Below are positions 8,845 through 35,640 of a stretch of 43,679 nt of DNA, one piece after another. Under the pieces are notes generated by a model. It worked only from the letters and a program-made list of their open reading frames with translations. It did not search any database and had not been told where the DNA came from. This DNA comes from a virus. Taxonomy: Duplodnaviria > Heunggongvirae > Uroviricota > Caudoviricetes. The stretch lies in the IMG/VR virus record IMGVR_UViG_2711768009_000009; one strand, 5' to 3'. The position numbers and the translations under genes are program-made. Numbering within the stretch: position 1 is the stretch's first letter; the number at the start of each line of letters is the position of its first letter.

Positions 8845-9411
8845 TCACGGTACTTTTGGTGACGGAGCTGGTGAGGCAGGAAAATAACGATAAAGGGTGG
8901 AAAGGCCAATATCAAATATCAGTGCGATTTGTTTACGGGACTCGCCATTAGCCAGCAAACGGGCGATTTGCTCCCGCTCTTTCTCTGTCAGTTTCTGAGG
9001 TCTGCCGCCATGACGCCCCTGAGCACGGGCAGCAGCAAGACCCGCGCGTGTACGTTCAATAATGAGTTCCCGCTCCATTTCCGCCAGCGCGCCCATTATA
9101 TGGAAAAAGAAACGTCCCATGGGAGTGGATGTATCAATATTGTCCGTAATGCTGCGGAAGTTAACGCCGCGTTGCCGGAGTTCTTCTGTTAAAAGGACAA
9201 GGTGCTGCATACTGCGTCCAAGGCGATCCAGTTTCCAGACCAGCAGGGTATCCCCTGGCCGGAGTCGCTTTAATGCGCGTTTAAGTCCGGGACGCTCCCT
9301 TGTCTTACCGCTTATTCTGTCTTCGAAAAACAGCTCACATCCTGCACATTCCAGCGCATTTCTTTGTAGCGCCGTATTCTGGTCATTTGTTGACACCCTG
9401 ATATACCCAAT
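8845..9411 (-). CDS. gin: Gin/Hin/Pin-family serine DNA invertase (188 resolved codons; start codon lies in the adjacent N-run)
   Basis: IGYIRVSTNDQNTALQRNALECAGCE...VWKLDRLGRSMQHLV...MGRFFFHIMGALAEMERELIIERT... is a near-canonical Gin sequence with the catalytic Ser motif. Confidence 0.9.
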   Translation of the reverse strand: MGYIRVSTNDQNTALQRNALECAGCELFFEDRISGKTRERPGLKRALKRLRPGDTLLVWKLDRLGRSMQHLVLLTEELRQRGVNFRSITDNIDTSTPMGRFFFHIMGALAEMERELIIERTRAGLAAARAQGRHGGRPQKLTEKEREQIARLLANGESRKQIALIFDIGLSTLYRYFPASPAPSPKVP

Positions 9412-9668
9412 NNNNNNNNNNNNNNNNNNNNNNNNNNNNNNNNNNNNNNNNNNNNNNNNNNNNNNNNNNNNNNNNNNNNNNNNNNNNNNNNNNNNNNNNN
9501 NNNNNNNNNNNNNNNNNNNNNNNNNNNNNNNNNNNNNNNNNNNNNNNNNNNNNNNNNNNNNNNNNNNNNNNNNNNNNNNNNNNNNNNNNNNNNNNNNNNN
9601 NNNNNNNNNNNNNNNNNNNNNNNNNNNNNNNNNNNNNNNNNNNNNNNNNNNNNNNNNNNNNNNNNNNN
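9412..9668. other. Unresolved sequence (257 N) at the expected gin-proximal inversion crossover site
   Basis: N-run directly upstream of gin and adjacent to the alternative tail-fibre segment. Confidence 0.9.
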
Positions 9669-9871
9669 CCGCCATAAGACTGGGGTCGGTGACCGCACAT
9701 ATGCCCGGAACATGGGAAAGCTGGGATCTGAATCTGGGGGGCGGCAATGTTCTTACCGGAATTAAAGTACAGGATGTCGGTAAGAATACGGCAGATAACG
9801 TCGGCGGCGTGTATTACCGGCCGTTGCAGTATCTGTTAAATGGAGCATGGGTGACGGCTGCAAGTATATAA
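9669..9871 (+). CDS. Alternative tail-fibre C-terminal segment (S'v-like), 66 resolved codons on the opposite strand; silent in this orientation
   Basis: Post-gap part of ORF 9062..9871; ends ...NVGGVYYRPLQYLLNGAWVTAASI*; convergent with the S/U genes, as expected for the second variable cassette of an invertible segment. Confidence 0.4.
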
Positions 9872-24805: not shown

Positions 24806-24982
24806 ACCGGCAGCATAAGCCGGGTATTTTTGGGGCTGGTTTTGCGGGACTTCAGAAAGTGCTGACAGGGGGGGAATGAGAAAGGCGCTTCACGCAGATT
24901 TTAAAGCCCGTTAAATACAGGTTAGAAAATCACGACACGCGCCTGAAGGGGGTAAGGTAATACGTTTGCATACCTTAAACCA
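24806..24982. promoter_or_regulatory. 177-bp noncoding G-I intergenic region at the prophage centre: candidate late promoter P_I and strong-gyrase-site equivalent
   Basis: Only sizeable noncoding gap in the structural module, ~18.1 kb from the left end; Mu carries its central strong gyrase site between G and I; contains hairpins and G/C runs. Confidence 0.4.
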
Positions 24983-25496: not shown

Positions 25497-25576
25497 GTCA
25501 GTGTACGCTTAACTGGTAAAGTCGGTGCCTGCCTCCGGGTGGATCATGTATGCGGGTTCGACCCCCGCCACTGACC
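25497..25576 (+). other. tRNA-like partial cloverleaf in the F-G intergenic region: 7-bp acceptor-type stem plus T-arm with GGGTTCGACCC loop; no anticodon arm
   Basis: GTCAGTG (25497-25503) pairs with CACTGAC (25569-25575); GCGGG-TTCGACC-CCCGC hairpin at 25552-25568. Confidence 0.3.
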
Positions 25577-28482: not shown

Positions 28483-30149
28483 TACCAGCCCCCCCGATCA
28501 AATTCATGATATGCCTCATCGTCATCACGATAACCGCCCTCCATTGCCCGCGACCGCTCCTGTAGCGCCTGACAGGCTGATTCATCCAGGATGAAGCCCT
28601 CCATGTATGACGCCCGGTTTGCCATACAGAGCGCCACGGCAAAATCACCATGGCGGCGGGCGTTCGCAGCCGTTGCGTTCTGGTCCTTCGTGCGCCCCTT
28701 GTCGATTTGCGGGATACCATTCACTACCTTCACATGGCGCAAATCATCAAGCGTGGTCTGATGGCGGGCGACGAGGATATTCTGATCTTCAAACTCGGCT
28801 TTCAGTTTTGGCATCCACTCGCCGTACCACTTCGGCGACAACATCACGCAGTCGATGATGTCCGGGCCAAAGGCCAGCAGTGCGGCCTCTGCCAGATAGC
28901 CGCCGTTACCGGTGGCGTCGAACGCCGCACCGACCAGCGCCGGAACGCGGGTCAGGATGTACATCATCACCTGTTCCTGCTGGGCATACGGCAGGTTGCG
29001 CAGCTCCACGCGAAACACCTCGCGCTTTGCCAGGGATTCGGTGATTTCCAGCAGCACAAAGCAGGACAGGTCACCGGTGCGGGCAAAGTCTTCCCCGAAG
29101 CTGAAGCGGGAACGGGGATTTAATTTCTCTAAAAGCGGTTTTAAATGTTCTTCACACCAGGTTAAAACTTCCGATTCACGCAGCCATGCGGCACGGCTGA
29201 TGAAGTTGTCCGGGGCTTCAAACGTCAGAATCGGGATGTCGCGGATCATCGCCATTTCAATAAGCGCGTGGGGGATATAGGCACCGCCGGATTTTTTCGG
29301 GATACAGCCGTATTCCTCGTCGGCATCCTCACGGGTCGGGGCGTTTTTGTAGAGATCATCACGCCATTTCTGCTCGCTTTCCGGTGACCATTCCTGATCG
29401 GTGACGTAACAGATACGACGGTACAGCCCGTCCGCAATGGCATCATCCAGGGTTATGCGGTGGACGCTGTAATCCTTGCGCCCCTCGCGGGCTTCCTGAA
29501 TGTACTGATTAAACAGATTATCGACGCCGTTATGCGTGGAGATAATACGCACGCGCGCGCCCCACATAGTGAGCGCCATTGCCGCCTTGAGAAGCTCATC
29601 CAGTGACTCGTGGAACGCGGCTTCATCAATCACCACATCCCCCTGAAGGCCGCGCAGGTTTGACGGACGGGAAGACAATGCCTGAATTTTGAATCCACTG
29701 TTCGGAAAGCGGATCATGTAGGTCAAAATTTCTTCTTTTTTATCCCGATCCCAGAATGTCTGCTCATACACATCAGCATCTGCCAGCTGGTTAAAGGCAC
29801 GGGAGAACAGCGCGCAGGCAGAAATATATTCCAGCGCCATCTCCTGCTTTGATCCCACATAAAACACATTGCGGCCACCACGACGCTTCGGTTTTGCAGC
29901 AGTAATGACGTTACGCCCGGCTTCCGCCCAGGTAAGACCGGTGCGGCGGGATTTCTCCGCGATGCAGACCTGACTTTCATCTGCAAACCAGCGGGCCTGA
30001 TAATCCAGAAACACCGGCATATCACCGGGCAAATCAAGGCTGTCCGGCACATCCACGCCCAGCAGGGCTTTTTCACCTGACAGATCAATTTTGCGGGGAG
30101 GCGTCATTTGCATCAGTGAAGGCGACGTTTCTCTGGCTTTGTTCATCAT
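28482..30149 (-). CDS. Terminase large subunit, Mu gp28-like (555 aa)
   Basis: ORF track; ...GDVVIDEAAF... Walker-B-like motif; size and position. Confidence 0.85.
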   Translation of the reverse strand: MMNKARETSPSLMQMTPPRKIDLSGEKALLGVDVPDSLDLPGDMPVFLDYQARWFADESQVCIAEKSRRTGLTWAEAGRNVITAAKPKRRGGRNVFYVGSKQEMALEYISACALFSRAFNQLADADVYEQTFWDRDKKEEILTYMIRFPNSGFKIQALSSRPSNLRGLQGDVVIDEAAFHESLDELLKAAMALTMWGARVRIISTHNGVDNLFNQYIQEAREGRKDYSVHRITLDDAIADGLYRRICYVTDQEWSPESEQKWRDDLYKNAPTREDADEEYGCIPKKSGGAYIPHALIEMAMIRDIPILTFEAPDNFISRAAWLRESEVLTWCEEHLKPLLEKLNPRSRFSFGEDFARTGDLSCFVLLEITESLAKREVFRVELRNLPYAQQEQVMMYILTRVPALVGAAFDATGNGGYLAEAALLAFGPDIIDCVMLSPKWYGEWMPKLKAEFEDQNILVARHQTTLDDLRHVKVVNGIPQIDKGRTKDQNATAANARRHGDFAVALCMANRASYMEGFILDESACQALQERSRAMEGGYRDDDEAYHEFDRGGW

Positions 30150-32967: not shown

Positions 32968-33038
32968 TGTTACGCTGTCTCATGGTGTTCTCTGAGTCAG
33001 CGTAACCGTGAGGAAAAGGGGGCAGGATTTGCGGAATA

Positions 33039-33461
33039 TCAGAAAAGCCGTGGCTGCGTGCGTTCCTGATGCAGGCGACGCTGGTTGCGGATAACGGAGT
33101 AAATCTGCGTCTCTGACATCTGGTAGTGGCGGCGCAGGGTTTCAATTTTTTCGCCCTGGCTCCAGCGGGAAAAAATTTCATTATTGCGCAGTTCGGTGAA
33201 AAGGGATTCACCGACCGGGAGATAATAACCACGCCCGCCCATGTACCCGGCCTGTGCGGCTGCAACCTTACGGGCAAGCATTCCCGCCTGAGCAGGTTCA
33301 ATCCCCTGACGGTGCAGTTCAGCACTGATCACATCAACCAGGTCCCGCAGCGTGCCGGGCCAGTTCTTTTTCAGCTCATCATCAGGAATATCATCCAGAC
33401 GGTCAATCAGCGCGTGCAGCTGTTCGCTGTCACCAAACATGCTCATCTGTGTTTCAGCCAT
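33039..33461 (-). CDS. Mor/C-family transcriptional activator (140 aa); by position and size the late-gene activator C
   Basis: ORF track; C-terminal ...GGRGYYLPVGESLFTELRNNEIFSRWSQGEKIETLRRHYQMSETQIYSVIRNQRRL resembles the Mor/C HTH region. Confidence 0.75.
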   Translation of the reverse strand: MAETQMSMFGDSEQLHALIDRLDDIPDDELKKNWPGTLRDLVDVISAELHRQGIEPAQAGMLARKVAAAQAGYMGGRGYYLPVGESLFTELRNNEIFSRWSQGEKIETLRRHYQMSETQIYSVIRNQRRLHQERTQPRLF

Positions 33462-33503
33462 ACCCGCCTCCGGTCATCATTACACAGGGCAAGTTTAAAA
33501 TAA

Positions 33504-33527
33504 AAATCCCGCGCTGTGGCGGGATTT
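33504..33527 (-). terminator. Strong intrinsic terminator of the early operon (9-bp stem AAATCCCGC/GCGGGATTT, loop of 6, then U-tract on the minus strand)
   Basis: Minus-strand RNA reads hairpin followed by UUUUUAUUUUAAA; lies between the gemA-like stop and the Mor/C-family start. Confidence 0.6.
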
Positions 33528-33531
33528 GGGG

Positions 33532-34044
33532 TTAACGGGGGAATGATTTTTCATACAGCCTGCAAACACGCTCATAACTCATCACTGCACGTTCCGACAT
33601 ATCCAGGGCTGCCAGCATTTTGCGGCGGTGCCAGCGTTTGAGACGCTCCAGCACATCAGAGGCCAGCGCGGGTTGTTGCTCCAGCCACTGCCAGTTAGCC
33701 ACACCTTCGCCGTCGTTCTGCGCGGCCGTCTGCGATTTCACCCAGCGGTTAAGGGCCGTTTCCCCGCCATCAGAGATAAATCCCTGCCGGTGCATCACTT
33801 TCCAGATGGCGCGAATTTTGGCGGTCACCGTACCCGGTTTTAAGGCCCGGTTAACCGGCTTCTGACGCACTTTAAAACCGCGTTTTTTGAAAACATCCAG
33901 CACGCGGGATAACTCACCGGGTGACATATCACGGCAACTGGATTTGCCGGTGGCTGCCAGCAGCGCGGATGTATAGGTATCATGGTCAAGCTGTAGATCG
34001 CGTTTTGCGACATGTATTAAGGTAATCAGGGAAGCGCGATTCAT
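33532..34044 (-). CDS. GemA-like early protein (Mu gp16 family), 170 aa
   Basis: ORF track; N-terminus MNRASLITLIHVAKRDLQLDHDTY...GKSSCRDMSPGELSRVLDVFKKRGF fits the recalled GemA/DUF1018 pattern; last gene before the early terminator. Confidence 0.6.
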   Translation of the reverse strand: MNRASLITLIHVAKRDLQLDHDTYTSALLAATGKSSCRDMSPGELSRVLDVFKKRGFKVRQKPVNRALKPGTVTAKIRAIWKVMHRQGFISDGGETALNRWVKSQTAAQNDGEGVANWQWLEQQPALASDVLERLKRWHRRKMLAALDMSERAVMSYERVCRLYEKSFPR

Positions 34045-34066: not shown

Positions 34067-34086
34067 GGCGGTGTTACCGCACCGCC
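34067..34086 (-). terminator. Intrinsic terminator-like hairpin (stem GGCGGTG/CACCGCC, loop 6) with U-tract on the minus strand, upstream of the gemA-like gene
   Basis: Minus-strand RNA reads GGCGGUG-CGGUAA-CACCGCC followed by CAUUUUUUAUGG. Confidence 0.5.
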
Positions 34087-34114: not shown

Positions 34115-34354
34115 ATGTCAGATATAAAAAATGCACTTGATGTTGCCGCATTCACAATGGCTGGAAATCTTATGGTAACCCTGTTCGATAAGGGGCTGAT
34201 TTCCCGTGAGGAGGCAATACATATTATCAATCTCGCTCAAAAAAACTCTACCCCGGAAAATGCAGAAGATATCCAGGATGGCTCATATATTAATACCGAC
34301 TGGCATTTCGACAATCTCCGGGCCTGTATGGGGATTACCGCTGAAAAAGATTAA
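34115..34354 (+). CDS. Hypothetical protein (79 aa) on the opposite strand within the early operon; AT-rich moron
   Basis: ORF track; ATG with AAGGA RBS; ~41% GC versus ~55% in flanking prophage DNA; 3' end overlaps the convergent 95-aa gene by 20 nt. Confidence 0.45.
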   Translation: MSDIKNALDVAAFTMAGNLMVTLFDKGLISREEAIHIINLAQKNSTPENAEDIQDGSYINTDWHFDNLRACMGITAEKD

Positions 34355-34767: not shown

Positions 34768-35092
34768 TATGTATCCCCTGTAATTCCGGCAAGGCCGAAA
34801 GATGGCACCAGTGCGTCACCTGTCCGTCCTCATCTTCAAGGCAGGCTCCGGTTTCTTCATCAATAAAAAAGCCTTCATACCCCATATGGCCGATGCGCAG
34901 TTCCTGTTGGTCACCATACTGAACAATCAGCACGACAGCCTCCATATCAGGCGGAAATGCGTCATCCAGTGAATGCCAGGGATAACCGCGCAAATCCCCG
35001 AAATAAACGCCGGTCAGCGTTCCGCCACAGAGCGGCATTCCGGCGGCACACACAAGAGGTTCATCTGATTCAACAAATAAGGTCGTTATCAT
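34760..35092 (-). CDS. Hypothetical acidic early protein (110 aa)
   Basis: ORF track; translationally coupled to neighbours. Confidence 0.5.
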   Translation of the reverse strand: MITTLFVESDEPLVCAAGMPLCGGTLTGVYFGDLRGYPWHSLDDAFPPDMEAVVLIVQYGDQQELRIGHMGYEGFFIDEETGACLEDEDGQVTHWCHLSALPELQGIHNG

Positions 35093-35640
35093 GGCGTTAA
35101 CTCCCGTAATACAGCGTCCTCGGCAGTCCGGCGACGGTAATAAACTGCGTGAGCAGAATGTTCAGATATTCCAAACTTTTCGCCAATTTCCCGGAATGAC
35201 AGACGGCGTGGGTAATCGGAATCACGCAGCTCACGTATAAGACGTACATCATCATCAGATATGCGCGTGCCGGGGCGTAACTCTCCGCACTTTGTTAATC
35301 CAGCACCAATCATTCCTGCCCGACATCTGACAGAATCTTTATTACGTCCGAGATATTCTCCCATTTGCTGGCAGGTCATTGTTCTGGCATTTTTTCGAAT
35401 AAACTTATCTTCATCAGGTGTAAATCTTGGGTGTTTATATTTCAGTAACTCCGGGTATGAACTGCGCAATACACCAGTCCGGTTATATACAGCCCAGACA
35501 GTTCTTTTTATTCTGGCAGCAATATCCTTAACCGGGGTGGATGAATAAAGCGCAATCAGCAGCGCATCTTCTTCAGGTGTCCACGGACGGACATGAGCGG
35601 GGGCGCGACCTTTTAGTCCCATGGGTTGTAATTTCATCAT
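35089..35640 (-). CDS. Putative DNA-binding early protein (183 aa): two Myb/SANT-like repeats plus C-terminal Mor/C-like HTH
   Basis: ORF track; WTPEEDALLIALY...IAARIKRTVWAVYNR and FTPDEDKFIRKNARTMTCQQMGEYLGRNKDSVRCRA repeats; C-terminal LSFREIGEKFGISEHSAHAVYYRRR. Confidence 0.5.
   Translation of the reverse strand: MMKLQPMGLKGRAPAHVRPWTPEEDALLIALYSSTPVKDIAARIKRTVWAVYNRTGVLRSSYPELLKYKHPRFTPDEDKFIRKNARTMTCQQMGEYLGRNKDSVRCRAGMIGAGLTKCGELRPGTRISDDDVRLIRELRDSDYPRRLSFREIGEKFGISEHSAHAVYYRRRTAEDAVLRELTP

Follow-up and report, generated by a model that had tools for sequence, protein, structure and literature searches.

For the relay of activators from Mor to C, bacteriophage Mu is the textbook case. 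The window analysed here (the whole 43,679-nt stretch of DNA, to which all positions refer) derives from an E. coli/Shigella-type chromosome, on whose minus strand lies a Mu-like prophage. Its one Mor/C-family gene is placed directly behind a strong predicted terminator at the end of gemA. The central question raised by this locus is what triggers, and what silences, the sole late activator, and the element concerned is small, at about 60 bp. The original prediction, made from this DNA alone, was that the terminator leaves no room for a separate promoter, that the activator must rely on read-through or on a promoter inside gemA, and that the early-to-late switch may be organised differently from that of Mu. 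The observation behind it was confirmed by our analysis, and its interpretation is partly supported.

The prophage and its single Mor/C-family gene

From 42.8 kb down to 4.5 kb, the prophage carries a repressor gene, a ner-like gene, the transposase genes A and B, small early genes and gam, followed by gp11/gp12-like genes, gemA, the Mor-family gene, lys, the head and tail genes, a gin-like invertase gene and a Mom-family gene. Copies that are 99.8% identical, as judged over 1.4 kb around the gemA-C region, occur in five complete E. coli genomes, and related copies are present in 231 of 5426 complete E. coli genomes (about 4%); the lineage was also found in Shigella, Salmonella and Citrobacter. 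The gemA-like gene (33532..34044, minus strand; 170 aa; Pfam GemA, E = 1.8e-28), whose product is called a 'gp16 family protein' in the RefSeq annotation of a prophage copy, is the final gene ahead of the terminator.

Outside the prophage, on the plus strand at 299-2014, lies a gene whose 571-aa product has LRR_TTSS and NEL (novel E3 ligase) domains and is on that basis a predicted IpaH/SspH-type type III effector; this gene, flanked by IS66 fragments and tail-fibre remnants (2194-4260), hints at a background of Shigella or enteroinvasive E. coli. Runs of N at 9412-9667 and 2371 (489 N in total) mask part of the tail-fibre/invertible-segment region beside the gin-like gene, and the 5' ends of ORFs that span them (e.g., 8845-9747) are unreliable. 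The RefSeq annotation of an identical prophage has a 'tRNA-OTHER' at the equivalent of 25497-25576 (plus strand), in the F-G intergenic region, where neither ARAGORN nor Rfam gave a match in the window; when applied to the full length of the window, the Rfam and tRNA scans were likewise empty.

The Mor/C-family gene (33039..33461, minus strand) encodes a 140-aa protein that matches Pfam Mor with E = 6.7e-31 over profile positions 2-107 of 107 and aligns end to end with both Mu C and Mor. Its Shine-Dalgarno sequence, GGAGG, lies at 33466..33470 (minus strand), with GAGG invariant in 13 of 13 relatives. When the 823 stop-to-stop ORFs that are 30 aa or longer in the six frames were searched with four queries (Mu Mor, Mu C, the window protein, and a profile built from these three), no second Mor/C gene was revealed (next best E = 0.04-3), and no further family member emerged from Pfam and PHROG scans of 30 ORFs drawn from the early region, the right end and the flank. 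The HMM-based RefSeq annotation of a 99.8% identical prophage also contains a single Mor-family CDS, and the original statement of one family gene is supported. Among related loci, 45 of 45 have one Mor/C gene within 3-4 kb, and Mu alone has two. A possible second member had been proposed in the 183-aa early protein (35089..35640, minus strand), a suggestion that must be abandoned: its hhalign probability against the Mor/C alignment is 0.4%, phmmer gives E = 23-100, and it belongs to PHROG 323 ('transcriptional regulator, D5-like') with E = 5e-53. With only sub-threshold Myb and HTH matches in Pfam, it is best described as a putative D5-like/Myb-like regulator.

The activator is closer to Mu C (40% identity, 111 bits) than to Mu Mor (28% identity, 59 bits), has the 140-aa length of Mu C rather than the 129 aa of Mor, shares with Mu C the QIY recognition-helix motif, and is directly followed by lys, which starts 72 nt on, as it does after C in Mu. 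By these features the gene is the orthologue of Mu C and not of Mor; the generic name of Mor/C activator originally given to it was right as to family and obscured this orthology. What is absent from the prophage is the mor-E18-E19-gp20 block of Mu, with C itself present, and the three-step cascade cannot operate as it does in Mu, in keeping with the expectation that the switch is organised differently. Clamp-binding motifs have been reported for MuC, Qx[D/E][L/M]F at the N-terminus and QPDLF at the C-terminus (Ho & Harshey 2026). The activator has QMSMF (with S in place of D/E) and QPRLF (a 4/5 match) at the respective termini, which is a resemblance in sequence only.

A late-promoter box derived from the prophage's own sequence, TTTYTGA-N4-CCGCAAAWC, has three exact matches in the window, all on the phage coding strand (the minus strand). 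Plys (32999..33045, box 33045-33026) reads TTTCTGA-tatt-CCGCAAATCC followed, 23 nt from the W of AAAW, by TACGCT. Most relatives retain this box and its TAnnnT hexamer, which can be aligned with Mu Plys, and the dyad centre is at about -44. The PI-equivalent, 5' of the head protease gene (24812..24858, box 24858-24839), reads TTTCTGA-agtc-CCGCAAAACC, 23 nt, TATGCT, and a post-gin promoter at the position of Mu Pmom (8795..8840, box 8840-8821) reads TTTTTGA-attt-CCGCAAAACA, 22 nt, TATTCT. The C orthologue presumably activates all three of these boxed promoters. Other exact copies of AAATCCCGCC, at 29945 and 18503, lie inside coding sequence with no -10 at the right distance and were taken as chance, and a PP-equivalent in the N-like gene (15316), a weak match with two mismatches, is not claimed. 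The post-gin box precedes a 684-aa gene (6705-8759, minus strand) with SASA (sialate O-acetylesterase-like) and DUF6645 domains, placed between gin and the 310-aa Mom-family gene (4479-5411). We predict this esterase-like gene to be late-expressed cargo where Mu has com-mom, and the box could be used in the same way to predict cargo and late operons elsewhere among such prophages.

The terminator between gemA and C and the block conserved within it

Four nucleotides past the gemA stop codon (33534-32) begins a hairpin (33504..33527, minus strand) with a 9-bp stem, AAATCCCGC/GCGGGATTT, in which five of nine pairs are G-C, and a 6-nt loop, CACAGC; the U-tract TTATTTT (33497..33503, minus strand) stands directly 3' of it. 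The folding energy of the RNA is -13.5 kcal/mol (z = -3.2 relative to shuffled sequences). What carries weight is how good this site is rather than the number of sites: strict sites (at least 8 perfect pairs, then at least 6 T within the next 9 nt) number three in the whole 43.7-kb window, this one among them, against 0.15 expected, whereas a generic scan gave 17 sites against 14.7 expected and no overall enrichment. With a G+C-rich stem, a short loop and a U-run, at a gene end and on the transcribed strand, the element is by sequence criteria a predicted canonical intrinsic (Rho-independent) terminator. It stands directly before the activator gene, as had been described, and the ribosome-binding site, originally and correctly placed about 30 bp past the U-tract, is the GGAGG found 26 nt past the last U; the C start codon (ATG at 33461) is 36 nt beyond the U-tract.

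The hairpin is identical or nearly so among relatives whose activators are 56-100% identical. The stems are thus almost without variation among close relatives, and compensatory outer pairs were seen in one related locus alone (L049), where the outer three A-U pairs are swapped for C-G pairs. That locus keeps a strong hairpin and has neither the U-tract nor a clear TAnAnT (the hexamer described below), and another (L010) has the T-run and TATACT and no clear hairpin; because each of them lacks parts, the terminator-promoter module is not universal.

A further terminator-like hairpin lies 5' of gemA at 34067-34086 (minus strand), GGCGGTG-cggtaa-CACCGCC and then CATTTTTTAT, between a divergently oriented gene for a 79-aa protein (34115-34354, plus strand) and the Shine-Dalgarno sequence of gemA, so that gemA is bracketed by hairpins. 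This upstream hairpin has a Mu counterpart at 8195-8214, with a poor T-run there, and counterparts in L004, L044, L047, L049 and L007, the last with compensatory changes.

Superimposed on the gemA-C terminator is a pair of promoter-like hexamers. A -35-like GCCACA (33515..33520, minus strand; 3/6) occupies the end of the left arm and the loop, and a conserved -10-like TAAACT (33492..33497, minus strand) overlaps the end of the U-tract 17 nt further on, with a predicted start at about 33485 that leaves a leader of about 24 nt ahead of C. The pair matches the sigma-70 consensus at 7/12 positions in the window and at 8-9/12 in relatives, where TAAACT is replaced by TATAGT, TATATT or TATACT. Taken alone, without the comparative data, the 7/12 promoter of the window is indistinguishable from chance, and a consensus promoter scan of the window gave fewer sites than shuffles.

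The comparison used upstream regions of relatives with 50-100% identical activators, of which 13 distinct sequences were aligned; a scan of genome contigs gave one locus, a first alignment was too diverged for use, and a second viral scan gave mainly Mu proper and loci already in the set. Conservation across the alignment covers CCACAG-CGCGGGA, which comprises the end of the loop with the right arm, and extends over the T-run to TAnAnT. In alignment A3, T49 and A50 are nearly invariant and A52 and T54 invariant, these being positions 1, 2, 4 and 6 of the hexamer. Conservation ceases immediately past the hexamer, and the leader between the U-tract and the Shine-Dalgarno sequence has diverged already at 84% activator identity. 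The sequence xxCACA stands 17 nt 5' of TAnAnT in 11 of the 13 sequences (the exceptions being L010 and L049, whose upstream regions are the most divergent), and the spacing holds even where the stem has decayed. The arrangement xxCACA-17-TAnAnT is the one expected of sigma-70 promoters whose -35 is weak, and a promoter is predicted on this basis, although terminator function, rather than a -10, could partly explain the conserved T/A-rich block. No sigma-70-like site of at least 9/12 was found on the coding strand within gemA, where a promoter had originally been considered. The claim that there is no room for a separate promoter is not supported, in view of the conserved pair within the terminator with its short leader, and Mu Pm overlaps its early terminator likewise.

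Relatives with inserts between gemA and C bear on the same block. Eight of them (L026, L040, L041, L044-L048) have a reverse-strand gene there, and the inserted genes differ, encoding 106-143 aa in those whose ORFs were listed (L026, L041, L044); L016 has an IS-type transposase and L020 a 714-nt insert. The regions concerned are 2490-4000 in L016, 2567-3355 in L026 and 3368-4000 in L041, with others in L020, L040 and L044-L048. In the two junctions read (L041, L044), the complete hairpin and T-run are kept at gemA, and in insert-bearing relatives a second copy of the element stays beside C. These variants show the hairpin between gemA and C to be a recurrent, preferred insertion point for cargo, with the inserts lying between two hairpin copies. 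The -35/-10 block beside C is kept in all of L040-L048 and L026, and both of its hexamers are intact even where the stem of the second copy has decayed (-7.3 kcal/mol in L045 and -7.6 kcal/mol in L047, neither better than shuffles). If C had no promoter of its own in these relatives, its transcript would have to cross two terminators and an antisense gene, and the retention of the block beside C is best explained by a promoter.

Supply of the late activator

These observations are consistent with a two-tier cascade in which C would be insulated from the early operon and fed both by attenuated read-through and by a weak promoter of its own inside the terminator, a reading that we give an even chance of being correct. 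What was observed is the anatomy, comprising the terminator, the lone C orthologue, the conserved block that resembles a promoter, and the late boxes; promoter activity, partial read-through and timing driven by template dosage are inferred. The early transcript from Pe would end after gemA at the intrinsic terminator, insulating C. A weak sigma-70-type promoter would be built into that terminator, with GCCACA in the loop, the right arm and U-tract as its 17-nt spacer, and TAAACT at the tail of the U-tract. C would then be supplied slowly, in part by the small number of early transcripts that pass the terminator and in part by its own weak promoter, and its output would climb as replicative transposition multiplied the template, such that template dosage would provide the early-to-late delay that Mor and Pm give in Mu. 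C would finally turn on three or more boxed late promoters. Counting against this two-tier reading, a late activator with a constitutive promoter ought to be harmful in a lysogen, and we found no element that would keep C silent there.

Alternatively, the 70-bp gap may hold no functional promoter at all, the terminator acting as a leaky attenuator and the conserved T/A block being its tail. Such a supply by read-through only would suit the weakness of the -35/-10 pair in the window (7/12), the mere 36 nt between the U-tract and the C start codon, and the situation in other Mu-like phages, where a single Mor homologue simply closes the early operon (PMC9936078) and where, in KS10, the two genes overlap. 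We nevertheless consider it rather doubtful, given that the A positions of TAnAnT are conserved beside a leader that diverges, and that the block stays beside C despite an intervening reverse-strand gene and a second terminator, even with a decayed stem. Positive autoregulation would instead keep the promoter and make C its activator. Most of the left hairpin arm is a half-box, CCCCAAATCC (33522..33531, minus strand), which matches 9/10 bases of the proximal half of the late box in the same orientation; C bound there might activate its own promoter through TAAACT, 27 nt away, or through an alternative -10-like TATTTT (33497..33502, minus strand) at 22 nt, a spacing to TAnnnT also seen at the post-gin late promoter. 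Read-through would in that case merely prime a self-amplifying switch that replaces Mor. A degenerate half-box, AAAACC, is indeed present in four of the five second copies examined among relatives of the moron type (L041, L044, L045 and L047, not L040). However, the distal half TTTYTGA is absent before C, where a full-site search finds nothing even with three mismatches, and half-box matches with up to three mismatches are not rare across the window (5 against 1.9 expected). The conserved hexamer is 27-28 nt off, about half a helical turn from the 22-24 nt seen at lys, I, post-gin and Mu Pm/Plys. The site before C is thus not a canonical C-dependent late promoter. TATTTT is confined to the lineage of the window (L004-type relatives have TCCTTT instead), and the half-box is inseparable from selection for the stem. 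Autoregulation of this kind, and with it the priming role for read-through, thus seems to us quite unlikely.

The absence of a good -35 would also fit a promoter that depends on an unrelated early protein acting in the role of Mor, as activator-dependent promoters lack one too. Among the products of the early operon is at least one putative DNA-binding protein, and the candidates would be the 183-aa D5/Myb-like regulator or GemA. The 183-aa protein is not Mor/C-like, however, and no dyad or motif 5' of the -35, beyond a decayed hairpin arm, was found to be shared between the versions of the element next to gemA and those of the moron type; we regard this as very unlikely, the least probable of the readings. 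A bolder combination would join several of these ideas into a self-contained timer in place of the Mor-to-C relay, in which a trickle passes the terminator, the terminator doubles as the C promoter, the half-box provides feedback and the template is amplified. We hold this to be unlikely as a whole. If it were true, the early-to-late switch would be a threshold device made of one protein and one 60-bp element, and the same element would be the preferred landing site for morons.

Comparison with Mu and other transposable phages

For the two-tier reading, the closest precedent is Mu itself. Pm bases -57 to -52 are GTAAAC (PMC4390567 Table 3), a sequence found at 9167-9172 of Mu. It follows that Mu 9224 is the +1 of Pm, that the Mor site of 16 bp, which spans -51 to -36, is 9173-9188 (AGTAA-AGCCGG-TTAAT), and that the -10 is TATCCT at 9211-9216. 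A hairpin, AAAGCCGG-TTAAT-CCGGCTTT, with seven T's (9176-9200) follows the mor stop codon and lies inside Pm: its left arm and its loop make up the Mor site, and its T-tract falls in the spacer of the promoter. In Mu, C is thus served by a promoter that overlies the early terminator t9.2, and a gene's position behind a terminator therefore does not mean that it has no promoter. The terminator after C in Mu (L002 10386-10420; CCGGCA-tcc-TGCCGG with TTATTT) is the source of the distal TTAT in the Plys region, which, added to t9.2/Pm, makes terminator/promoter overlap occur twice in Mu; in the window, no hairpin lies between C and lys.

The element described here resembles Mu t9.2/Pm in that an intrinsic terminator would end the early transcript, a promoter or promoter-like block is superimposed on it with the T-tract in the spacer, the -10 is recognisable and the -35 poor, and the transcription unit served includes the late activator C. 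In Mu, however, gemA overlaps mor, followed by E18, E19, gp20 and C, so that t9.2/Pm comes after mor, requires Mor on a 5-6-5 dyad centred at -43.5 and has C 740 nt downstream behind three small ORFs, whereas here the element comes after gemA, lacks Mor and dyad, and stands with its predicted start about 24 nt from C. The hairpin is also about 8 bp nearer to the -10, with the result that the loop falls at the -35. The features of a Mor-dependent promoter of the Mu Pm type are missing, there being no Mor gene, and the 16 bp centred at -43.5 of TAAACT (GTTAACCCCAAATCCC) not forming a dyad. We rejected the alternative idea that TGTAAT (33484-33479) is the -10 and the hairpin dyad a Mor/C-type site centred at -43.5, which also equated 'cctgtg..atga' with the Mu Pm -10. 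It disagrees with the published base identities (Pm +1 at Mu 9224, -10 TATCCT), TGTAAT is not conserved even among relatives with an 84% identical activator, and the hairpin arms are everted relative to the Mor/C half-site orientation.

Downstream of this element, too, there are likenesses to Mu. The activator has the length of Mu C, its place upstream of lys and its QIY motif, and both of its termini resemble the clamp-binding motifs in sequence, although, unlike Mu C, its gene lies outside any Mor-dependent middle operon. The late promoters are placed as Plys, PI and Pmom are in Mu, and each has an imperfect dyad box overlapping the -35 and centred near -43.5/-44.5, but the box is TTTYTGA-N4-CCGCAAAWC here and TTAT-N5-6-ATAA in Mu (Plys, PI, PP, Pmom). 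Unlike Mu Pmom, the post-gin promoter precedes the 684-aa esterase-like gene and not com-mom directly.

A lone Mor/C activator is not new in itself and has already been described in Fc02, PaMx73, KS10 and MuM16-1. The Pseudomonas Fc02/PaMx73/D3112 group, Burkholderia KS10 and Shewanella MuM16-1 have, as here, one Mor/C gene that directly follows gemA where the early region ends, and no second member of the family. In KS10, however, the coordinates of gemA and Mor overlap, and the Fc02 pair is co-transcribed at the end of the pE operon (RNA-seq), whereas a strong terminator separates the two genes in this prophage. It is this predicted terminator between gemA and C, with its built-in promoter-like block, that appears distinctive. 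The arrangement is a modest variation on the wiring of Mu rather than a new kind of system, and the prophage lineage shows that the Mor-to-C relay is dispensable.
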